Assembly: GCA_963758525.1 (NCBI GenBank)
Contig: CAVWVQ010000003.1
Coordinates: 1,856,001 to 1,920,000 of the forward strand
Source: an uncultured Phycisphaerales bacterium
GTDB lineage: Bacteria; Planctomycetota; Phycisphaerae; Tepidisphaerales; Tepidisphaeraceae
Reading direction: 5' to 3'
DNA: 64,000 bases
Position numbers and translations under genes: made by a program
Shown here: positions 3,289 through 20,949 of the stretch, one piece after another
Layout: each line of letters begins with the position of its first letter
Position numbering within the stretch: position 1 is the stretch's first letter
Notes under the pieces: generated by a model
Seen by the model: only the letters and a program-made list of their open reading frames with translations
Told to the model about the DNA's origin: nothing
The model's database searches: none

Positions 3289-3540
3289 TCAGGGCAGCGC
3301 CACCGCGTCGGCGTCGATCTCGATTTTGGCGGTCGCAAAGCCGGCGGCTTGGATTTGGCCGATGGCAGAACGGAACGCCTCTTCCAGTGAAACGGCCTTG
3401 CGGTCGAAGTGGACCCAGGCGGTGCCGTTAGACGATGCCGGCGTGCCGTCCTGGCAGCCCGCGTGGAACAGGGCATCGGCCTGGTCGTCTGTGACTTGCG
3501 TCGTATCTTTCAGCACTACGTTAAATTCATAAATCTTCAT
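3289..3540 (-). CDS. Small HicB-like putative antitoxin (83 aa)
   Basis: MKIYEFNVVL...DALFHAGCQDG...VHFDRKAVSLEEAFRSAI; GGAG Shine-Dalgarno 5 nt before ATG 3540; lies after a HicA-like gene. Confidence 0.6.
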   Translation of the reverse strand: MKIYEFNVVLKDTTQVTDDQADALFHAGCQDGTPASSNGTAWVHFDRKAVSLEEAFRSAIGQIQAAGFATAKIEIDADAVALP

Positions 3541-3788
3541 AGCGGCTCCATGGATACTGCCAGCGGACTCGTGCGGACAGGCATTCACCATCCGCCGAAG
3601 ATAGGCGACGTGGTGTTCGGGCACGCGGGGCGTGCCATACACACTGACGATGCAACCGCCGCGCACTGCGCGGGACAAAACAGCCGGCCCCACGCGTGGG
3701 CACGCGAACCCGATTTAATCAGCCGCCAGCCACTATCCAGCGCATAATCGATCGCTGCCCGGATGTGCTTGTTCGGGTGGTCGTTCAT
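3541..3788 (-). CDS. HicA-like putative toxin; frameshift ~3665; reads in frame into the downstream antitoxin
   Basis: MNDHPNKHIRAAIDYALDSGWRLIKSGSRAHAWGRLFCP joined to RGGCIVSVYGTPRVPEHHVAYLRRMVNACPH. The GW...xH pattern resembles HicA. Confidence 0.55.
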
Positions 3789-3890
3789 GAATCGGGCCGT
3801 TGATATTACGGGGCGCGCCTTTTGGAAACAACTTGCGCACGCCGCACCGAGAAAACAACGGAACCCAACGCCGGCATTGTAAATTGGCAA

Positions 3891-5273: not shown

Positions 5274-8200
5274 TCACTTTGCCGCTCTTGCGGGGTTCTG
5301 GGTCGGGGGATAGAAGCTTCCTGCCTGCGACGCGGCGATCCGCTCGATCTGATCGCGCGGCACGGTGGACGGCTTCACCAGGCACATAAAGCTTTCCATT
5401 TCCTGCACATCATTCTCGACCCCCATCACGAAGTGGCCGCGTGATTTTCTCGCGAGCTTGTCGGCAGTGTCCCCGAATCTGGAACGGAGTTTGTCAATTG
5501 CGGTTTTTGTTGTGAGCTTCCCGGCGAAAGTGGTGGTGATGTTGTCGAGGGCTTTATAGTCGAAGTCGCCGACGTTCTGACTTGCGAGCATCACGCCGAC
5601 GCCCGCCGCGCGGCGCGGCGCAGCAGGTTTTCCATGCCGGGTTTGGTCACCGGCTTGCTCGTGGCGGGAATGTAGAGATCGGCTTCGTCGAACATCAGCA
5701 GCGCCTGCAGCCGGCCGTCGGGGGAGGGAAATTGCTGGATGAAGCTTCCGGCCGCGGCCAGAAACTGCGCGATCCAGGCGAGCGACGAGTCACCTTCGAG
5801 AAATTGGGTGCAGATGATGTTGAGCGGCACCTTTCCGAGTCGGGGCTGCAGAAGCATGCGGGGCAGATCCACTTTCTCGCCGTCGTCGCTGAAGAGGCGG
5901 CCGTGCGCAACGCGCCGCTCGTTGAGGCGCCTGCCGACCTCCTCGCAATGTTTGGCGCCGTGTGCCGGCAGGCGGCCCAGCAGTTCCTGCGGCGCGCTGA
6001 GCAGCAGATTTTCAAGGGCGTCGAGGTTGTGCGACATCGGAGCGGTGCAGAGCAACTCGATCGCCTTCGAGAGCACGGTGGCGAACATGTCGGTCTTGGA
6101 CGGCGTTGCGGCGCAGATGTGACAGAGAATCATTGCGGCCTGGCGGGCCTGCTCCTGCCGCTCGTGTTCGTCAACCTTGCTCAGATCGGCCGGCAACAAC
6201 GGAAGCACCAATGGTCGACCGGCAGCGGAGCCGGGCGTGTAGAGAGAGATATCGAGCCGGTCGCGGAGCGCGCGGCGGCGCTCTGTTTCATCGGGCGCTT
6301 CGGTGTCCTGCGTCCAGGCTTCCTCGACCGCATACGTCGCCAGATCACCTTTTCGATCGAAGAGAATGACGGCCACGCCCCGCTCCAACAACCTTTCCAC
6401 GATGTTCAGGGCCAGCACGGTCTTGCCGCTCCCATTGGCGCCGAAGATGGCGGTGTGACGGGTGAGTGACTGGGGATCGAGCGTCACCTCTGTCCGAAGG
6501 AAGCCATCCGATGTGCCGATTGCGAGCGGGCCGGTCGATTGCAGCGGAACAAATCGAGGCTCCGCGGAAGCGAAATGCAGCCGCTCGGCCGGCAGAAGCA
6601 GGCGCTCTGCTTCGGGCGATGCCTCTGGCACTGCCTGGGCGGTGACGGTCGCAGCGCCCGCTGGATCAGACGCCGTGTCGACTACTGTGGCGGACGCTTG
6701 GGTCGCGGGAACCTGCTGCAATCCGCGCCGCTGGATAATGGCGTGAAGCTCCGGAAGTCCGGCAAGCGGCATATCGCTCTTTCGCCATTCCGCGACGATG
6801 TCCGGCGCGAACTTCGCGGCGTGCGATCCCAGGAAGTCGCGCATCGCCTGCATGGTCTGCCAGCATGGCTCGTCTATGACCTGACAGACGCCGCCCGATT
6901 TGCGCAGCTCCGCGAGGTGTTGAGCAAGCTTTCCTTTGCCGGGGAAACGGGTGCTGCGGATGACGACCACGCCTTGCTGGGGCGAGGTGCGGAGAGCCTC
7001 CAGCGTGGTCACCTGCTTGTACAGGCCATTGCCGCGAGCGTCTTTTTCGCAGAGGCCGATCAGACGCCGCAGGGGCGGATCGCCTGTCCGATTGAGGGAA
7101 AACGAAATCGGCGAAATGCCGCCGGCGGTGGCGAGCGAGGCATCGATCATGATGGTCGAGCGTTCGGGCAACTCATTGGGCAATTCGCCCAATGTCCACC
7201 TCAGCAGATCGAGATGCGCAGCCTCATTCTCGGCGACTTTGTGCTCGCCGGCGGTGCGAAACTCATTCCACGCGAGCCGCAGGCGGTCAACGTCTTCCGG
7301 CTCGGGTGAGATCGGCCGGACGATGTCCTCCTGCTTCCATTCCACGATCGCCTTGGCGCGATGACACGCATGCCAGTATCGGTGAACCTGCTGAAGCACG
7401 TCGCGCAGGTGTTGTCCTCCCAATCGTTCGGGGAGATTCTCCGGCATGGGATAGACCGAATCGGGCGGGACGTGCTGCAGCCCCACCCCTTCGTACAGGC
7501 CTTTCAGCCGGCGGGAAACGATCTGGCGGATCTCCTGGGAGCTTCGCGCGGCGATGAGCACGACGGGGCTTGGCTCGTTCTCAATCCGATGACGGTACGA
7601 CGTGATCAGATGCGGCGCGTGGACTTCGTATGCCGAATCGAGGCAACTCAGCAGCACCATCATCTTCGGCACATTCTCGATCAGCTCGCAGGCGCTCCCC
7701 ATCGCTCGCGTGAACGGGTCGTGGTTTTTTCCCGTGATGTCGCTGGCTTCGATCTGATCCACGCAGATGACCAGGGGCGAGCCGAGCGCGGCGACGGTGA
7801 TGTGCGCTAATTGTCCCAGCAGGTGCATCGGCTCACGGTTGCAATCAGGCGGTAGCGCGGCAAGCGTCCGCCAGTCCATGCCGCTGAGCGGCTCCCCATT
7901 GAGGAAGCTGCTCACGCGGCGCTGAATCGCCTTGCGATTGCTTTGCCGATACAGGAACGCGCGCAGCGTGTCCAAGTCCACGTCGGCGTAACGCACGCGC
8001 CCGTTCTCGTCCTTGGCCTCACTGAGCACATCGGCACATTCGTTGACGAGCCGTGCGAGCGATTCTTCATCAGCGTCCCGGAGTTTCTCCGCCGCTTCGT
8101 GCTCCAGTCCGGAGGATTCGGCGAGCGCGTCGCTGATCAGGTCCAGCGCACTGAACTGTTCCACCTGATCGGAAGCATGGAGATAGGCATCCGACAGCGA

Positions 8201-8541
8201 TCTGACCACCTGCCGGAGCAGATATTTGCGGTAGTCGCCGTGCTCGCTGGTCATGTGAACGTACGCGATGACACCGCGATGCTGGCGGTGCGTCTGCGCC
8301 CGCAGCGCAGGATCAGGTGGGTCTTCCCGCAGCCCGCTTCTCCCTTGATCAGCAAGACCCTGCTGACGCTTCCTGCGCGGACGCCGTCGAGCGTGGCGTT
8401 GAATGCCTCGCGCGCGCCAAGGTGAAGTTCCTCGACGTCGAAGGGATCGGCAAACGCGATCTGCGTCCCCTGCACCACCGAACCCAGCACCTCATGGCCG
8501 CGCTCGCGAAACACCTCGTCGCGACAATCGACTTCATCCAT
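5274..8541 (-). CDS. ~1089-aa double ATPase: N-terminal AAA+/STAND-like P-loop fused to a C-terminal HerA/VirB4/FtsK-like (DUF87/DUF853) ATPase; frameshifts ~8307 and ~5610
   Basis: Walker A GEAGCGKTH with Walker B VICVDQIE; second module HTAIFGANGSGKT, ILFDRKGD, YTPGS, LLMFDEAD, MLASQNVGDFDYK. One-base repairs join ORFs 8251..8856 (from ATG 8541), 5591..8254 and 5274..5594. Confidence 0.85.
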
Positions 8542-9625
8542 GGCTTCCCCCGGTATTGCTGACGCGGATGTAATGAAATCGCGATGCGCCGGTCCTGACC
8601 TCGGAATCGCTGAAATCCTGCGCGCGATCTTCCGGGATGAGATCCTCCCGCACGAGCACAAGCTGAGTGCCGTTGACTTCGGAGAGGTTCTGCTTGAACC
8701 GCTCCAGCGGAAGCGGCCCGTAGGTCCGCTCATATTGGCGCCAGGCATAATGCACGAGCACCTTGTCGCCGAGATTTGAAACACCGGCCCCGCCCACATG
8801 CGCGACCGCCTGGGCGGCGGCCAACGCCTGGCGGGAGAACGTGGCAGGATCGGCATACGAATCTGCGTGAGCGCCGAGCCCGGCCGGATCGAGTGGCGGC
8901 GCGGACGGCGTCGGAGCCCTGACGCCCAGCCATCGCTTTACGACGGCGAACTTGATTTGCTTCGCCTGGCAGTGATCCAGAATTTTGCAGACGACTGCAG
9001 CCAACAGCTGGTCGAGTTTTGCCGCCTTTGTTTCCGGTTCTCCCAACAGCGGACCGACTACAAGCGCTGGAAGCACGCCGTCCGTAAGCTTCTTCAAATA
9101 GATTCTATCCGTGGGCACGTGCGACATCCGCGACAGGGCAAGTTTCACCAGTTCAAGCTTTGCAACATCGAGTCCGCGATCGAGCGGAACCGGCAAATCA
9201 AGCTGTTGGATGCAAACGGCCAATGGGAGCAACGCGGTAAACGTCTTCTGAGATTTCTTGTCGGTCTGCGGAAGCGGCAAACCGCTGGCGATTGCCGGTA
9301 ATTCATAGGTGCTGATCGATCCGAACGGTCTGGTGCTCACCGGAAGACTCGTTCGTCCCAACCGCCGACTCACGTACGCCTGCCCCGATTCGGTGATTTT
9401 GAAACTGGCCTTGGCGGTTTTCCTCGCTGGCTGGATTCGCTCCGCGCGTGCCGATGTGACCAGTCGCTCGAGCGCCGTTGGCGCAAGGCTTTGGGCGGCG
9501 CCTTGCGGCACCATCGGCTTCATCGCGGTCGCCAGCGAAGCCGCAGTGGCCGGCTTGCCCGTCTGGCACCACAGCCATGCCAGTACCACAAGCTCCAATC
9601 GCTCTTCGTTGACTTCGCTCTGCAT
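8534..9625 (-). CDS. Hypothetical protein with predicted N-terminal winged helix and a C-terminal wHTH-like domain
   Basis: ...ALERLVTSARAERI...FKITESGQAYV is a typical wing followed by ITxxG; GGAGG SD; stop overlaps the ATPase start by 8 nt. Confidence 0.7.
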   Translation of the reverse strand: MQSEVNEERLELVVLAWLWCQTGKPATAASLATAMKPMVPQGAAQSLAPTALERLVTSARAERIQPARKTAKASFKITESGQAYVSRRLGRTSLPVSTRPFGSISTYELPAIASGLPLPQTDKKSQKTFTALLPLAVCIQQLDLPVPLDRGLDVAKLELVKLALSRMSHVPTDRIYLKKLTDGVLPALVVGPLLGEPETKAAKLDQLLAAVVCKILDHCQAKQIKFAVVKRWLGVRAPTPSAPPLDPAGLGAHADSYADPATFSRQALAAAQAVAHVGGAGVSNLGDKVLVHYAWRQYERTYGPLPLERFKQNLSEVNGTQLVLVREDLIPEDRAQDFSDSEVRTGASRFHYIRVSNTGGSHG

Positions 9626-9628
9626 TAT

Positions 9629-10969
9629 TCACCTCCCCAAAATCTCATCTTCAATCGGCGCACCCGCGTCGCGCCGCGACCGCCGTGACTGCACGACTTC
9701 GATCACCCGGCCGACGATCATCTCCAGTCGGTCGGGCACATCCTCGGCAAGAAACCGCAAAACCGCCATCCCCTGCCGCTGCATCAGCCAATCTTTGGCG
9801 CGATCCCTGCGATATGCCTCTTTGTCCTGAAAATGGAAGTAGCCGTCCACTTCGATCGCAATCGATAATGCCGGGCAGAGCAGATCGATTTCCGCCTTCC
9901 GATTCCCGAACATGAAACCGCCGTCGGCATTGAGTACGAACAGTCCGGTAGTCGCGGCATCGGCTTGCAGCGCAGCGTACAGCAGCGCTTCGGCCAGACT
10001 GCGCACCGCAGCATACTCGGCGGGCGGCTCGGTTTGGACCGACGGCGCGGATGCGCCGACCTGCAACGCAACTCTCACTGCTCCGCGGGCGCGATCACGC
10101 AAATTCTCGATCGCGGCGCTCGTTGGCAATCCAGGATCGGAGCGTCCCGCTCGGGCGTCAGCCCGTGGTTCGCACGCGATTTCGACGGCGGCTTGCGAAG
10201 AGCGTTGCATAAGCCCCGGCGGGTCGCTGGCGCAGACGCTGAGCCCATCTCGCAGGATCGCCGGCGTGTGGGAGTCGAGTAATTCCTGCAATCGGCTCCA
10301 CGCGTCGGAGTCGGCGACGACAACCAGCCGCATCTCGCGAATTACTTCGACAGCACCGGCGATCCACCGAATCGTTTCGGCCATTTGATCTGCCTGGCTC
10401 GACGCCATGATGACGATGGGCCGAAGCCCGCCCCACAACTCCGCCACCATTTCCAAGCGCTCGACGTCGCCCAGTCCCCGCGCCCGCAAGTGATCCAGAG
10501 TTTCGCGGACCACCTGAGCGGGACTGCCGGCGGTGCTTACTGCGAGCAGCCGGGCAAACTCGTCTGCGCCGTGGCGGCCTTGCAACGTCCGCTCCGACTC
10601 GGCTTGCCACAGTCGCTCGGGGACCGACTTCGCGGGCTCCGCAATCTGCAGCACTTCCCGCGTGCGACCCAGGAGCATGTCGGCAACGTGCGCATCGAGC
10701 GGTTCATCTACTCCGCACCAACTCGACAGGAAACGCGTCACGTCGAGCGGCGACTGCACGAAGAACGGTAGTGATTGGCGGCCCGACGGATCAGACAATC
10801 GGTCCGATATTTTGATCGCCTTTGACTCGAGCAAGACCGCAATTCGACGATCGGCCGTTAAGAGTTCCCGGAGGATCTGCGGAGGTCCAGGAAGTCCGGG
10901 AGGAACCAGTTGTGGAGAGAGAATGCCCATCCCTTTTCGTATCGTCCGCGATTCGATGGAGCGAGGCAA
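9629..10969 (-). CDS. Protein with C-terminal DUF559/Vsr-like PD-(D/E)xK endonuclease domain (start uncertain, alternative 10930)
   Basis: RSLAEALLY...EIDLLCPALSIAIEVDGYFHF...YRRDRAKDWLMQRQGMAVLRF. Confidence 0.85.
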   Translation of the reverse strand: MPRSIESRTIRKGMGILSPQLVPPGLPGPPQILRELLTADRRIAVLLESKAIKISDRLSDPSGRQSLPFFVQSPLDVTRFLSSWCGVDEPLDAHVADMLLGRTREVLQIAEPAKSVPERLWQAESERTLQGRHGADEFARLLAVSTAGSPAQVVRETLDHLRARGLGDVERLEMVAELWGGLRPIVIMASSQADQMAETIRWIAGAVEVIREMRLVVVADSDAWSRLQELLDSHTPAILRDGLSVCASDPPGLMQRSSQAAVEIACEPRADARAGRSDPGLPTSAAIENLRDRARGAVRVALQVGASAPSVQTEPPAEYAAVRSLAEALLYAALQADAATTGLFVLNADGGFMFGNRKAEIDLLCPALSIAIEVDGYFHFQDKEAYRRDRAKDWLMQRQGMAVLRFLAEDVPDRLEMIVGRVIEVVQSRRSRRDAGAPIEDEILGR

Positions 10970-13671: not shown

Positions 13672-13983
13672 ATGACGCTCGCGGAAGTAGAAAAACGGGT
13701 GGCTGCACTCGAATCGGTCATCGGGAAGCTCGCCAACGGCAAAAAGAAGCCAAGTTTGCAAGGCTGGTGGCGTGAATCGGCTGGGAAGTTTGCCAACGAC
13801 CCAGTGTTCGATGAAATCGTTCGTCTCGGACGAGAGTATCGTCGGTCTCTTGGAAACAAGACGAAGGCGAAACGTGCTTTTGGAGAGGTTGGAGAGTTCG
13901 TCGGATCCAGACGTGCAAGTCACGATCGTGAGCTTCGAGGAACAGATGCGAGGCTGGCTTGCTTTCATATCAAATGCACGTAA
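13672..13983 (+). CDS. VapB-like antitoxin; native stop apparently lost ~13880, so the frame extends
   Basis: MTLAEVEKRVAALE...WWRESAGKFANDPVFDEIVRLGREYRRS is typical of antitoxins paired with PIN toxins. Confidence 0.65.
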   Translation: MTLAEVEKRVAALESVIGKLANGKKKPSLQGWWRESAGKFANDPVFDEIVRLGREYRRSLGNKTKAKRAFGEVGEFVGSRRASHDRELRGTDARLACFHIKCT

Positions 13984-14236
13984 CCCCGAAGCTCAGGTGA
14001 ATGGCTATTACCGCCTTCACGCCCTGCTCGACGACTACACTCGTCGACCGCTTCTAGACTTCGATGATATGGCGGCTGCAATCTTTCAGCGGCTTCGCAA
14101 GCAAAGGGTTCGCATCGGAACCATGGATCTCCGGGTCGCCGCGATCGCTCTTGGGAACGATGCAACGTTGATTTCGCGAAACCTCGCGGATTTTCGCCGC
14201 GTACCCGGTCTCAGGGTGGTCGATTGGACGACTTAA
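13874..14236 (+). pseudogene. vapC: VapC PIN-domain toxin lacking the N-terminal hhhDTD strand
   Basis: VTIVSFEEQMRGW...RIGTMDLRVAAIAL..DATLISRNLADFRRVPGLRVVDW; no N-terminal LDTD motif in this frame. Confidence 0.75.
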
Positions 14237-14337: not shown

Positions 14338-17300
14338 TCAATCTTCAATCACCACTTTGTTCTCGTCTGAATTGCCCTTCAATTCCGGTGCGTACATTGC
14401 ACTGGCTCTGGTCGGCAACGCGCTGAACTTTCCGGGGATTTCGGCTCTGAGCCGGTATGAGACAGAGTGCTTGCCGCGGGCCAGTGCCCGCGCGAAGAAG
14501 CTGACGCGGTCGTCGCGCAGTTCCATATAGGCGTTAAGATCGTTGCCGTTGTAGCCGCTCTGCAGATCGACAGGCTCGAAGCCGGCGGCTTTCATGTCTT
14601 CGAACAGGACATACTCGTAGTCGTTCTTGCTGTCGATCTCAAGCTCGACTTCGATCAGATCTCCGCTTTTGAGCGCTTCGCCGTCGGCGATTTCCTTCCG
14701 CTCGTATTTTTCCACACTCTGGTCCAGCGCCTGTCCGCGCTGCCCGGAAACTTTGGCGGTCTCTTTCACTTCGATCAGCTTGTAGAACTTGCGTTGCACG
14801 CGGACTTCCAGCCCGGCTTTTTTGATCGGATCCTCCAGCGTGAAGTTGGTGACATAGGCGCTGAAATAGAGCGGGCCGGCGCCGGATTTGGCGAATTCGA
14901 TCTTGTGCTGGCCGGTGATGACGTCGTTGCCGCTCAGCACGACCTTGTTGTCAAACGAGAAGAGATTGGTCGCATCGATATGCACCTGCTTCATCTGCTT
15001 GCCGTCGATGCTGACCGTCACGGTTTCGTCCGGCTTGTCTTCGCCGCTGGCGCGGATGTAGTCGGCCAGGGCCTCGATGCAGATCGCGGTATCGCGGGTG
15101 CTGTTCCAGTACGACGCGTGCTTGCGATTGGTGATCAGATACTTCGCGAGGCGGGCGGTCACTTCGCCGTGCGGATCGGTCCGGCTCAGGAGCTTGAGAT
15201 AGTACCCCATCGCCTCGGTGTCAGAGCCGTACCAGCACCACCAGTAATTCTCAGCGGGGAGCTTCAGGTACGCGGTTTGGTCTTCGTTGTCCTCAACGAC
15301 GTATTGGGAAATGTTCTGCAGCAGCATGTCGAGCTTCTGCTTCTCCCCCTGTTTTTCAAGAGCGAGCGCGAACATCGCTTTGCCGTAGACGGCGATATCG
15401 TTTCGATCGCGATAGAGAAATGCGGTCATCTTCGGATCATGCACATCCGCATCGGCCAGCACCATATAGACAAACGCGTCGAGATCGTCTGCCGTCTCCT
15501 TCCACGGATCGATCTTGGCAGGGGCATTTTCGAGCATTTTCACCTGGCGGTTCTGATAATCGACGAGCCACTGCTGGCCGCGTTCGAGCAGGTTGCCGGG
15601 GAGGACGACGCCGTTGGATTTGGCGATCTGCAGGCCGTGCACGACCAGCGCGGTGGTGTGCGGCCAGGAGGATTCGCCGATGCCGCTGAACCATCCCCAG
15701 CCGCCGTCGGCAACCTGCATGTTGGCCAGCCGCTCGATTCCTTCGGCTGTCATGTCCGCGACCACTTTCTCGTCGAAGACGGGATTGCGCTGCCCGACGC
15801 CGGGGTTTGGCGGATTGTTGCGTTTCCAGTCCTTGCGCGCTGGGCATCGTCGCCGATTTCCTGCGCGTTGAGATTGGTGCGTTTCTGCTCGATCGCCTTG
15901 AGATCGAGGTGCATCCCCAGCAGCACCTTCTGGGTGATGACCGTCGGAAGAAATCGATTCAGCGTCTGCTCGGTGCAGCCATAGGGATAGTCAACCAGAT
16001 AGGGCAACGCATCGACCATGGCGGACGCGACGCTGGGAGAATAGCGGATCTCCACCCGGCTCTGCTCGGGCAATCGCTCGGCGGGAACGTTGAACGTCAG
16101 CGACGCGTGTTCATCTTTCGGCCGCATCGCGCCGGAGAACGAATCGGTTTTGAGCATCCCATGAATTTCCACGGGGAAGGTCATCTGCATGGCATCGGAT
16201 TCTTCGTCGGTCAGCGCGGCAACTTTAATGTCCGCCGTGCCGGGAGCGACAGCTTTGACGCGCCAATCGACGCGGGTTTCCCCATCGGCGGGGATTTCCA
16301 CGGTTTGCGCAAGATTGCTGCCGGTCGACGAATCGACCAACGGCGCGAGCGTATTTCCGCCCAGATCGAGCGTGACCTTCACACTCTTGGCACTCTTGAG
16401 ATAATTGTGAACATTGGCCGAGAGAACCACTTCGTCCTTCTGCACGAAGAATCGCGGAGCCTGGAGACGGACGATCACGTTCTTGAAAGTGACGACTTCG
16501 GCTTCGCCTTGTCCGACGCGCGTGCCTGACGACATCGACCAGACCTTGGTCTTCCAAGTCGTGAGACTTTCGGGCATGGTCAGCTCAACCTCGGCGGTTC
16601 CATCAGCGTTGGTGTCGATGCGCCCGACCCATAGAGCGGTGTCGGCGAAATTCTTGCGGACGGTCGGTTGCACGGTTGGAGCGCCGCTTCCGCCGGGTTC
16701 GCGGGCGGACCGCTTGTCGCCGTCGGACCGGAAGTTACCCCCGGCGCCGGCAGCGTCGGCCGCCATCGGCGCAGCGGGCGCGGCGGAATCTGCCGCCATC
16801 AGTTGATTCTGCTCCGCCATTCCGAAGAGATTTCCTCGCACTGACTTCAACGCCTTGACTCTGCCGCCCGGCACCATTCCATGGACACGGCCCTCGTCCA
16901 TACCCACCTCTCCAAACGCGCCCAGCACGGACATCGCGACTTCATCCGAGTGATATAGCGGCGTTCCCTCGCGGTCGAGGCTCGATTCTGTCTGCGGATA
17001 GTGATTCCGTCGCCATTTCCAGAAGAATGCCTTGATCTCCTCGACGTTGGATCCGCCGGAGATGTACTCGACGGCTTTGTCGTAGATGCTCACAACTTCC
17101 GAGCCAGCGACCGGCGCTCCGTTGGCATCGGTCACCTTGATCTGGACTTTCGCCTTCTCCCCGGGCCGATATTTCTCCGCCGAGGGAGTGACCGCCACAT
17201 TCACCACCCTGCTCTCCGGCGGCACCACGATCTCGCGGACGTCGTCAAATACTTTTGCGTCGCCCACCGTCAGCGCCTCGATGAAAAAGTTCGGCGTGTC

Positions 17301-20300
17301 CTTCTTCACCACCGCCACGTCCTCAATGGTGCTCTTTCCCTTGAGCCGCAGAACCTTCGGCGGCAGGTAGATGCCATTGCTCGGGCGAAGGAACAGGACG
17401 ACCGTTGAATCGGCACGATCGGTGTTGATCATCAGCCGGACGGTGTCGCCGGCCTGGTATTCCTTCTTGTCGGTTGTCAGTTCAATGTCATTGAAGCGGA
17501 ACTGCTGGCCGTTGAATCCCTCGCCGCGAACCACCAATACGTACCCGCCCTCGATGCTCCTGCCCCTGGCATCAGTCACGCGATAGCTGAGGCGGTATTG
17601 CCCGCTGGCGGCAGCCTTGATCTGCTGATGCGCCAGGCCCTGCGCGTCGGTGTCGAGCGCCCAATGCTCGACCTCGTTTTCGACGGGATTGCGATCTTTG
17701 TCGTAAGTAACACGCAGGAGCTTCAGCTCCCCCTTCGCGCCGGCGATGGGCTTGTTGTCGAGCGTCTGCGCGGAGAATGAAGCCTCGATCGCATCGCCCG
17801 TGTTGTAGTAGCCGCGATCGACCCAGGCGTAGACGCTGAATGGCTTGCGCGCGACGAGCACGTCGCCGGCGCCGACGATCGTCCGGCGCGATTGGTCGGT
17901 GACCTCTGCCGTGATCGAATAGCTCTGATCTTCGTCGCCGTGGACGGCCTTGGCGGGCGCGGTGTCGATCTCGACTTTTACCGTGCCGTCGGGACCGACC
18001 GGCACGTCGTTCTCCGCCACCACTTCCGGCGGGGCTGACTGGCGCGGCCACCAGAGGCGCAGCGGCGCCCGCATGCCCCAGTCGTTCCAGCCGCGATACC
18101 AGTTGTATTCCGCCGCAAACCACCAATAGCCCGGCTCATAGAACCAGTCCCACCGCGCGGCGGGAAACCAGCGGGCGTCGTGCGCCTGCCGCAGGATTTT
18201 GTAATGCACTTTCGCGTTGACGACGGGCGTCCCGAAATAGTATTTCGCCCGGATCGTGGCGGTGATCTTGTCGCCGAGCTGGATCGGCTCGGTCGGCGCG
18301 TCGACGGTCACTTCGTATTCCGGTTTCTTGTATTCCTCGACGCGGAAATTCCCGCCGCCGAAGTTGTCGACTCCCAAGGCGTAAACACCCAGCGTCGCGT
18401 CGGCGGGTATCGTATATTCCCCGTCAAACCCCCCGAATTCATCTGTCTGGTACGTCTTTTCAAGCACCTTTTCGCCGCGCGGATCCTGCATTCGCAGCAG
18501 CGCGCTGACGTTGGCGAATTCTGATTTGCTCTCAAGATCGTATTTGGCGGTTTCGAGCCAGAGCTTGAACTTTACGGTCTGGCCCGGCCGGTAGACGGGC
18601 CGGTCGGTGATGAGAAAGGCCTTTCGCTGGTTGTACTGGGCGTCGTAATATTGGCCGCCCCAAATTCCGGTGAAACCCAGGTACGCCAGGCGACCGTCCG
18701 GCGTGGTGGCGGTCGTGAGCCACTGGAAATTGGCGTCATTGCCTGTTGCGTCCAGCGAGCACTGCCCGTCGGCGTCGGTCGTGCCGGAGGCATTTTGCGT
18801 AATGATGCGGACGCGATTGTCGGCATACTCCTGGCGATAGCCGAAAAACTGCATCTTCGCGTTGGGAACCGGCGCACCGGTGACGGCATCCGCAACGAAA
18901 AAGTACGCTCCGTTCTCGCCGCGCTTCTGGACGATCGCCGTGTCGGCGATCCAGAGAATGATGCGCGTCGTGTTTCCATCCTCCATCCGCGCGGTGATCA
19001 GATAGGCGCCGGGTTGCTTGATCGGCACATCGACTTTCACGCGCCGATCGAAGTGTTTGGGCCGGGGCTGCAGGTCCATGTCCCATTTGGCCGTTTGCCT
19101 GATCAAGTATTGCTTCTGGTTTTTCTCGACCAGGCGATAGCCGAGATTGTTGACGTCGATGGATTGCCAATCGAGTTCACGCGGGTGCGCGGCGATGGCT
19201 CCCTGCACATCGTCGAGCAGCCTTTTGACATCGATCTCCTGCGCATCGAATGACACTTTCGTGCCGTTGCGGAAAACCAGGTAGGCCGACGCATTGGTCC
19301 CGGACGGCTCGGTTTCCGCTGCGTCGAACACGGCCCAATTCTTCAGGATCTGATCGAGCCGCGATTGCTTCGCATGGTCGGGGCCCGGCCCATAATCGGC
19401 GATGCTCTTCTTCCAATACTCCGCCGCCCGGTCGTACTGCTGGCGATTCTCGAAAAGTTCGGCAAGCTGCTCCAGCGCCTGCTCGCCCCAGTTCGATTTC
19501 TTCTCCGCAACCGACTGGAAGAGATGGATGAAATTGAACTCCTCGGGCAGCTTGAACCGCTTAATCCCACTGGCCAATCGCGCGATCGTTTCATCCTCGC
19601 CGAGCGTCTGGACGGCATAGGGGCCGCTCTCGTCCTTGCGCGTGGAATCGTCGTCCGCGGCGGGGCCAATATCGGCGCCGCGACCGAAGAATCGCGGGCC
19701 CATGTAAGCCATCGTCTGCACACCGAACTGAGTGTGCAGAAATTCAGCAAAGACGTATTTCGCGTGCAACGCCGCGTCATCTGACGTTTGGCCGGCTTGC
19801 TCAAGACACCATCGCCAGCGTTCGCCGTCGGTCTTGGCGTCGTTCCAGGATTTGGGGATCGCGTGATAAACAGGCGATCCGTCTTCATTCACGGGGGCGC
19901 CACGATCGTTGCTGTCTCCGTAATAGCGGAATCCCTCCTCGTAGTCGGGAAGCTTGGCGAAGTCGGAGAGGTACTGCAGTTTCCAGGCGCCGTCGCCGGG
20001 GCGGTTATCGAGGAGAACGCCGGCAAAATTGAAATAGAAAGCTCCCAAGGCGTTCTTATCCGGCTCATTTGCCGCGATCGGCATCGCCTGCACCATAAGT
20101 TGCAGGGCGCGGACGCGATCGCGCTCGAAAGTTGCCACCTGGCGGCCGTCGCCTTGCCGGCGTCCGCCGCGGTAGAACTTTCCGGCGACGATGGTCCCGT
20201 ACCCTTCCCCGTTCAGGTAGCTCTGGGCCGCCGCATCGAGCAGCCGCCAGTTGTTTGCGTGGGCGGCGATGGTCTTTTCGCGGAAGTCGTCAATCTCGTC

Positions 20301-20552
20301 GCTTCGGCCGAGCTGCTGCAGACATTGAATGCCGTTGACCAGGTCGTCTGATACGAGCATGGGATCATCCGTCGGATCCGTGGCGAGCATTGCGAACCCC
20401 GATTCGTAGGCGTCTTTCCAGTTTCCCTTTTGTTGCGCGGATTGCGCGGCTTCTCGCCGTTGCCCGGCGCCCGATTCGGCGGCGACTGCTCCAAGATAAA
20501 GGCCGCTCAGCGTGAGAAACAGAGCGTACAACCCCAGAACGCGTTTCGACAT
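14338..20552 (-). CDS. Alpha-2-macroglobulin family protein (~2070 aa, secreted); frameshift ~15835
   Basis: Signal peptide, TDRPVYRPG, FRVEEYKKPEY, VRKNFADTALW, thioester YPYGCTEQT, QVADGGWGWF, YWNSTRDTA, ELRDDRV, AMYAPEL. Confidence 0.92.
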
Positions 20553-20739
20553 AGCAGTTTCCTCGAGTCCGCCCCCCGCCTTTGACGCAAGCGGCGCGCG
20601 GAAGTTCCCGCCGCTCGTACCACGGGTTCCCAACCCGTGCGAGAGATGCAGGATTCTAACGAGGATAGCTGAATGCTGCGGTTTTCTTACTACCGTGGCG
20701 CAGGGCGGGTTGGGAAAACCCGTGGTACGCCACGGCCGC

Positions 20740-20949
20740 TTACGCGTCGCGGCTGTTTTTCCCAATGAGGAAGTAAAGAATCATGCCGAGCACCGGCAGC
20801 AGCAAAATGACCAATGTCCAGAGAAGCTTATGCCCAGCCGTGCCGGCGCCGGCCAACACGCTGACGATCGCAATGATATCGAGTATCAGTACGATCAGTC
20901 CGAGCAAGCCGCCCCCTACCATCATGTCCGCGAGAATGAATTCAGCCAT
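20740..20949 (-). CDS. Small membrane protein, PLDc N-terminal domain
   Basis: KLLWTLVILLLPVLGMILYFLIG signature; GGAG SD. Confidence 0.8.
   Translation of the reverse strand: MAEFILADMMVGGGLLGLIVLILDIIAIVSVLAGAGTAGHKLLWTLVILLLPVLGMILYFLIGKNSRDA

Follow-up and report, generated by a model that had tools for sequence, protein, structure and literature searches.

A three-gene cassette pairing a DUF559 nuclease with an Orc/Cdc6-HerA/FtsK double ATPase: a predicted DNA capture system in Planctomycetota and Myxococcota

What is the task of three tightly packed genes in an uncultured Phycisphaerales bacterium that encode a nuclease, a candidate winged-helix protein and a large double ATPase? They lie in a stretch of 64,000 nucleotides (the window; positions 1,856,001 to 1,920,000 of contig CAVWVQ010000003.1, C3) that is part of a 6.47 Mb assembly, 91% complete. 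An earlier note on this DNA had regarded the trio as a candidate defence or DNA-processing system, in which a DNA-binder and an AAA+ module engage DNA, a HerA ring moves it and a DUF559 nuclease cuts. Here we find that the three-gene cassette is real and conserved, that it belongs to a computationally predicted class of capture systems, in which we set it by matching the described parts, and, as the new element, that its nuclease has an N-terminus predicted by modelling to be an Orc/Cdc6 domain without catalytic activity. We lean towards the view that the cassette is a machine of the predicted Orc/Cdc6-HerA/FtsK capture kind, which would seize and cut invading DNA in the service of defence.

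The three genes are co-oriented on the minus strand at 10930-9629 (gene 1), 9625-8534 (gene 2) and 8541-5274 (gene 3), as read from the sequence and its open reading frames (ORFs). A gap of 3 nt (9626-9628) separates the stop of gene 1 from the ATG of gene 2, a GGAGG ribosome-binding motif sits in the 3' end of gene 1 (9632-9636, minus strand), 6 nt ahead of that ATG, and genes 2 and 3 overlap by 8 nt (8534-8541); the packing reported earlier is thus present in full. Only the start of gene 1 has to be moved, from a TTG at 10969 (minus strand) to the likelier ATG at 10930, which gives 433 aa and is the start of database gene call P0236. A GTDB genome scan gave 30 loci, three of which end within the ATPase gene and one short of the nuclease position. 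Gene 2 lies directly upstream of the ATPase gene in 27 of 27 loci with upstream DNA, and the order and strand of the triad, with the nuclease upstream of gene 2, are kept in 23 of the 26 assessable loci. All 30 further Myxococcota loci found via gene 2, which are kin and not independent of each other, also hold the triad in order. The synteny that the earlier note had proposed to survey is therefore kept far beyond chance. A profile search with gene 3 of 1.84 billion representatives returned at least 150 rows at E <1e-145 among the matches listed, most of them full length, and the gene 1 family holds at least 385 proteins (385 homologues past 1e-25 among the candidates scored).

Gene 1 (9629-10930, minus strand) encodes a protein of two parts. 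Its C-terminus matches Pfam DUF559 with E 6.7e-6, above the cut-off, and MTES_1575 weakly. The domain (9692-10033, minus strand) keeps the E...D...ExDG..H motif intact: residues E312, D348, E359, D361, G362 and H365 are invariant in 88 of 88 homologues and are present in the window protein. In a fold model of the Singulisphaera orthologue (pLDDT 80), residues 307-417 resemble 3hrl (Z 11.6), I-Bth0305I (10.6) and Vsr (9.2); a Foldseek search with the whole nuclease model was uninformative alone, while VIA was informative. We presume that this nuclease is of the AbiJ-type family, to which a weak Atlas lead (0.81) points. The earlier note had thus correctly named a Vsr-like DUF559 nuclease at the C-terminus, but the roughly 300 aa ahead of it, left unexplained there, can now be interpreted. 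Residues 5-253 of the orthologue model resemble Cdc6 (1fnn; Z 11.3, rmsd 3.5, 147 aligned), followed by a group at Z 9.3-9.8 that includes TnsC (9.8), MuB (9.7), ORC5 (9.6) and BrxC (9.4); other AAA+ proteins follow closely (Z 8-10). A Walker A motif (GxxxxGK[ST]) was found in 0 of 88 gene 1 N-termini and the Walker B strand has no conserved acid; an arginine ahead of strand 5 (R244 in Singulisphaera, likely the arginine finger) is kept in 84 of 88 homologues. Because a Cdc6-like fold is combined with the absence of Walker A and of the Walker B acid, we predict an AAA+ domain at the N-terminus that is inactive, closest to the Orc/Cdc6 clade and similar to the inactive STAND (iSTAND) type; aligned to the modelled orthologue, it would span approximately 10226-10888 (minus strand). 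In the window protein this part is divergent: alone it scores 11.0 bits against the family N-terminal profile, compared with 9.4 for the best of 200 shuffles. The three-member clade of the window protein aligns colinearly to the family over residues 52-423, with a score that comes largely from the nuclease domain.

The large partner, gene 3 (5274-8541, minus strand, about 1089 codons over three frames), is predicted to consist of an Orc/Cdc6-type AAA+ module, a dead restriction-nuclease fold, a proline-rich linker and a HerA/FtsK-type module. The first module matches Pfam AAA_16/AAA_22, with BrxC_BrxD reaching the cut-off in homologues P0008 and P0034, and the source names of Archangium members include 'Cdc6-like AAA superfamily ATPase'; we read it as a probable Orc/Cdc6-type AAA+ ATPase. 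The HerA/FtsK-type module (5274-6550, minus strand) matches Pfam DUF87 (E 2e-11) and HerA_C as well as PDB profiles of YjgR and HerA, and the alignment, as read from sequence, places between Walker A and Walker B an insert of about 150 residues whose pattern is helical. Across the family both ATPase sites are intact. Residues K78, D262, E265, R319, R380, K675, D925, E926, R949, R951 and Q962 are kept in 60-62 of 62 homologues, at which level we find Walker A, Walker B and what we take to be the arginine finger and sensor 2 in the N-terminal module, and Walker A, Walker B and, presumably, the RxR motif and the glutamine sensor in the C-terminal one. Between the two modules the earlier note had overlooked a further fold (6725-7225, minus strand). 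A model of this middle region of the window's own protein (pLDDT 82) shows a helix, three strands, a helix, a strand, a helix and a strand. The best VIA rows are nuclease folds at Z 8.3-6.0, namely VC1899 (8.3), Can2 (7.6) and LlaBIII (6.8), and the best Foldseek rows are MspJI and EcoT38I (E 1.6e-3 to 3.4e-3); the two sets of scores are middling yet concordant on a restriction-endonuclease-like fold. A PDB profile search with this region gave no match. Since no acidic or lysine catalytic columns of the PD-(D/E)xK site are conserved, the nuclease fold within gene 3 is likely dead (an inactive restriction endonuclease, iREase).

In gene 1 a dead Orc/Cdc6 domain would accordingly be joined to a live nuclease, and in gene 3 a dead nuclease fold to a live ATPase. 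The two proteins are predicted from these models to be mirror images of each other, and we regard this design as the detail to carry forward.

Gene 2 (8534-9625, minus strand) has the 363 aa reported earlier, but the winged helix that was ascribed to the protein as a whole is supported for its first approximately 95 residues only (about 9341-9625). For this part 13 of 18 PDB rows are winged helix-turn-helix (wHTH) regulators (DtxR/IdeR/MntR, RosR), at a sub-significant E of 0.03-0.57. The window protein matches no Pfam family. Behind a middle region follows a conserved C-terminal domain that gave no wHTH match, and the second half gave no fold match; in the Atlas, its look-alikes belong to unnamed clusters of Myxococcota and Planctomycetota. 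Gene 2 is a probable DNA-binding adaptor.

Is the cassette of the window itself intact? The earlier note had described a double ATPase of about 1089 aa. The two P-loop modules are indeed there; in the assembly, however, they do not share a single open frame. Comparison by tblastn with intact homologues splits gene 3 over 8541-8311, 8308-5612 and 5612-5274 (minus strand), with shifts near 8310 and 5612, which had gone unstated. The first break (8306-8314) lies right behind the AAA+ Walker A and the second (5606-5616) at the HerA arginine-finger motif; the length of 1089 aa presupposes the lack of a single base at each. The nearest homologues are unbroken, with 1056-1129 aa at 54-72% identity, and locus L114 carries a complete intact cassette. 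From a genome of the same genus we sampled 20 regions of 20 kb, which gave 199 ORFs, 75 of them with an orthologue here; 17 of these 75 are frameshifted in the present assembly, corresponding to 0.46 shifts per 1000 aa. Because the relatives are intact and the assembly is prone to indels, both breaks are probably assembly or sequencing errors, and the ATPase gene is probably intact in the living organism. Against this stands an unlikely explanation, namely that both breaks are real and that the window copy is a decaying pseudogene, whatever the family does elsewhere. At the measured rate, two or more shifts in 1089 codons would arise with a probability of about 9%, each of the two breaks lies at a catalytic motif, and neither is covered by any public contig or read (three soil runs are listed, and no RNA run). 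Decay would, however, have left no in-frame stops and three pieces that are all 70-88% identical to intact relatives, next to open genes 1 and 2, in an assembly whose orthologues are so frequently shifted. Moreover, all three genes, though neither break, are covered in part by contigs from run X1, which come from a near-identical strain. Frame breaks in cassette genes also occur, at differing places, in the assemblies L021, L028, L032, L036, L049 and L050. In the window, an alpha-2-macroglobulin-like gene (named from its sequence; 14338-20765, minus strand) is likewise read in two overlapping frames near 15750-15765, probably owing to an assembly indel.

Gene 3 varies among its relatives. An extra N-terminal helical domain of about 200 aa is present in 28 of the best 150 homologues (for example P0024, P0025 and P0036); a TerB-like identity, suggested by eye, was not confirmed by Pfam. 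The long homologues P0142, P0152 and P0164 combine a strong AAA+ match with little or no Pfam HerA match, perhaps reflecting a degenerate or replaced pump. Eight relatives of the window organism (L002-L009) carry a HerA-family gene of 810-880 codons that matches the C-terminal module only and belongs to a different family, and at L030:11694-13946 (minus strand) a second HerA-family gene, which stands alone and encodes 750 aa, is found on the opposite strand 4 kb downstream.

How does the triad relate to systems already described? The earlier note knew of no characterised system with this composition, which is true for experiments, whereas the class has been described computationally (Rakesh, Aravind and Krishnan, NAR 2024, PMC10853773). 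The sections of that paper that concern us report neighbourhoods of a mobile kind in which an Orc/CDC6 ATPase, with an inactive REase (restriction endonuclease) behind its core, is joined by an active REase, one family of which is shared with AbiJ, and by HerA/FtsK and wHTH domains; one HerA/FtsK version has a four-helix insert, and some loci encode a separate protein that contains 2-4 wHTH domains. For the Orc/CDC6-HerA/FtsK systems the authors propose, as a computational prediction, the interception of invader DNA. With this "HerA/FtsK capture" the cassette shares, as far as these sections describe it, the Orc/Cdc6 ATPase followed by an inactive REase, a HerA/FtsK domain without FtsK-alpha and with a helical insert (read from sequence here), an active REase, a separate fast-evolving winged-helix protein and the absence of a modification enzyme. 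It differs in that no winged helix is seen behind the inactive REase in the ATPase chain, in that one winged helix is supported in gene 2 compared with the 2-4 of PMC10853773, and in the fusion of an inactive Orc/Cdc6 domain to the active nuclease, which is unmentioned in sections 22 and 26 of that paper. Four of seven features of the class as described there are found (Orc/CDC6 AAA+, inactive REase, HerA/FtsK, active REase) and none is contradicted. In the literature searched, the capture class is known in print as a prediction only.

The dead domain of gene 1 leads further to BREX. Rakesh and Krishnan (NAR 2026, PMC12839542) describe inactive STAND domains of the BrxB type that are fused to nucleases and proposed to act as switches, as well as a HerA-bearing BREX-Related Capture (BRC) system with PglZ. 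The BREX core BrxA-BrxB-BrxC and BRC share with our cassette the combination of a winged-helix protein, an inactive STAND/Orc domain and an active Orc/Cdc6 ATPase; the fusion of an iSTAND domain to a nuclease effector has counterparts in PglW and type-4 PglZ, and BRC also has HerA/FtsK. The likeness of gene 1 to BrxB lies in the Cdc6/ORC/BrxC fold without Walker motifs of the orthologue model. The cassette differs from BREX and BRC by having no PglZ, methylase, GNAT or TGT, by its DUF559 effector and by the fusion of HerA to the Orc/Cdc6 ATPase; DUF559, Vsr, myxobacteria and planctomycetes do not appear in PMC12839542. BrxX/PT genes are not conserved around 30 loci, and neither the cassette nor 136 flanking ORFs gave a BREX match with PADLOC.

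In Sir2-HerA (Nezha) and DUF4297-HerA, a HerA protein acts against phages together with a nuclease or another effector, and PDB entries for HerA proteins of this type were matched in the gene 3 profile search. The pairing of a HerA motor with an effector is shared with these systems, which consist of two genes and are not known to have an Orc/Cdc6 or winged-helix partner, whereas here HerA is fused to an AAA+ module and the partner is DUF559. A HerA/FtsK-family pump is also common to HerA-NurA end resection, which has a nuclease partner as well, and to Ced DNA import; in contrast to both, the cassette holds no NurA, Mre11, Rad50 or membrane channel gene, and the CedD and CedB models reach 36 and 14 bits against it at cut-offs of 600 and 700. 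DndFGH is, according to the relevant part of PMC10853773, a three-gene counter-invader module with a winged-helix protein (DndG), an REase and HerA/FtsK; DndF, however, is a P-loop kinase, and DndH unites the active REase with HerA in one chain. Gene 3 matches the DptH C-domain at E 0.89 only. The PADLOC search of the cassette proteins, proposed as a check in the earlier note, yielded no PADLOC or NCBIfam family at cut-off and weak Walker A or nuclease matches only; for gene 3 the HerA models match just the Walker A region, far below cut-off.

The sketch of events given in the earlier note fits the domain evidence and appears to us the best reading, and it can now be extended. The winged-helix protein and the ATP-bound Orc/Cdc6 domain of gene 3 would assemble on DNA, like ORC, TnsC, MuB and BrxC. 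The nuclease could join this assembly via its dead Orc/Cdc6 domain; the arginine kept there would then complete a neighbour's ATP site or gate it, and cutting would be switched on only within the assembled complex. The HerA ring would pump DNA past the nuclease. No methylase, other marking gene, integrase or fourth conserved gene travels with the cassette at about 30 loci. Because no marking enzyme is present, the target, likely incoming DNA, would be told apart by its form, such as transfer, packaging or replication intermediates or free ends. Alternatively, the cutting may be a suicide response.

The distribution of the cassette is patchy. Gene 2 was found in 36 of 151 Myxococcota, in 27 of 81 Archangium-family genomes, in 29 of 60 Singulisphaera-family genomes and in 3 of 300 other Planctomycetota; since the searches score only part of the candidates in each genome, and many of the genomes are not complete, a blank means not found. 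The full ATPase was found in 0 of 60 close relatives of the window organism, a tally that includes the unpublished genome G004. Two copies of gene 2 occur in 6 of the 27 Archangium-family holders (G203, G204, G214, G544, G553 and G561), and the Archangium ATPases fall into two clades (L030, L048). In a FastTree of 49 rows, which contains the window as an 887-aa middle piece only and which we did not use to name a donor, the window lies in a long-branch subclade of nine rows, one of them named, and three loci of this subclade each stand in a gene context of their own. Among named relatives, the Tepidisphaeraceae assembly L021 is nearest to the window cassette. Gene 2 and the gene 1 N-terminus diverge fast: from clade to clade their identity is about 25%. 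The window organism likely obtained the cassette by horizontal transfer, and we count the patchy spread and the differing contexts in favour of the capture reading.

Several observations weigh against the capture of invading DNA. We found no experimental study of the cassette class in the literature searched, which left subscription papers uncovered. The dead Orc model rests on the orthologue and not on the window protein, and a profile-profile comparison of the gene 1 N-terminus with the partner AAA+ module, although in register, gave E 0.14, which is not significant and was not used to propose a duplication. Behind the iREase, the gene 3 model has no winged helix but short helices without a wing and then the proline-rich linker, the VIA list being filled by one domain. 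Three loci of one subclade (L033, L043, L044) have the winged-helix and ATPase genes with no nuclease gene in the fetched DNA, and the two-gene core can therefore persist without the nuclease. Among 129 flanking ORFs at 24 loci, called crudely with up to three per side and no random-gene control, 8 match PADLOC at 1e-10; a Septu (PtuAB) pair two genes from the cassette (L026:4485-6496) is the sole complete defence system, at 1 of 24 loci, and the other matches are kinases, a cyclase, an ABC ATPase and a reverse transcriptase. The enrichment in defence islands suggested as a check in the earlier note thus finds little support. Searches of 72,556 plasmids, 50,697 phages and the IMG/VR viral contigs gave no match, no integrase, tRNA or flanking repeat was found at the window locus, and the G+C of the window cassette resembles that of the genome. 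In Archangium-type loci a glutathione synthetase (named from its sequence) is the usual neighbour (12 of 31), and the 27 Archangium-family holders are all among the 36 genomes of at least 9 Mb, compared with 0 of the 45 smaller ones; both look more like stable inheritance.

These points can be turned into a different proposal, in which the cassette is a host DNA-processing machine of large-genome soil bacteria for break repair, end resection, fork rescue or the disposal of prey or sibling DNA, comparable to HerA-NurA except that its nuclease would be Vsr-like and its loader ORC-like. The restriction to large genomes, the metabolic neighbours with the conserved position near glutathione synthetase, the absence from plasmid, phage and viral collections and the fact that HerA-NurA and Vsr act in repair would all suit such a role. 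A housekeeping machine should, on the other hand, not be missing from 9 of the 36 large genomes and from all 60 close relatives of the window organism, present twice in 6 of 27 holders and scattered over phyla; nor is the MGMT neighbour conserved, and the adaptor and the nuclease N-terminus diverge as fast as conflict proteins tend to. We judge this proposal rather unlikely, but large myxobacteria retain the cassette stably and its defence-island signal is weak, which keeps the proposal alive. More doubtful is a further reading in which genes 1 and 3 are halves of one ORC-like hetero-oligomer on a HerA pump, serving predatory, aggregating soil bacteria as a mark-free guard against, or disposal of, prey or neighbour DNA rather than in ordinary phage defence. 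Least probable of all appears to us that the cassette acts as a selfish or addiction module, or stems from a transposon or conjugative element of which a piece was domesticated (a TnsC/MuB-like ATPase, a coupling-protein-like pump and a nuclease), and is retained as its loss is harmful. TnsC and MuB are indeed among the fold neighbours, TraD/TrwB/VirB4 models match weakly, insertion sites differ within one subclade, and toxin-antitoxin (TA) modules lie near several loci. Yet no transposase, integrase, relaxase or terminal repeats travel along, none of the plasmid records holds the cassette, and versions without the nuclease persist.

If the cassette is a capture machine, the dead Orc/Cdc6 domain on its nuclease is proposed as a concrete and mutable switch, which links the cassette with BREX and its BrxA-BrxB-BrxC core, yet without a DNA-marking enzyme, and poses the question of how a mark-free machine spares host DNA. 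The window copy, from a metagenome assembly and with its frame breaks, is a poor test object. Intact copies are present in the cultured strains Singulisphaera acidiphila, Archangium and Corallococcus, and the cassette is therefore testable.

The remaining genes around the cassette in the window appear to be local. MGMT and TA loci are neighbours here, as the earlier note had stated, but a link of the cassette to them is rejected: of 11 flanking genes tested, none matches at any of 31 related loci. In an empty-site comparison, the gene order past a galactokinase pair was not kept in four relatives. At 3289-3890 (minus strand) lies a small HicAB-looking pair, of which a 101-aa ORF matches PADLOC PDC-M06A (5.8e-12), and a PIN-domain gene, by a weak Pfam match, is located at 13772-14236.

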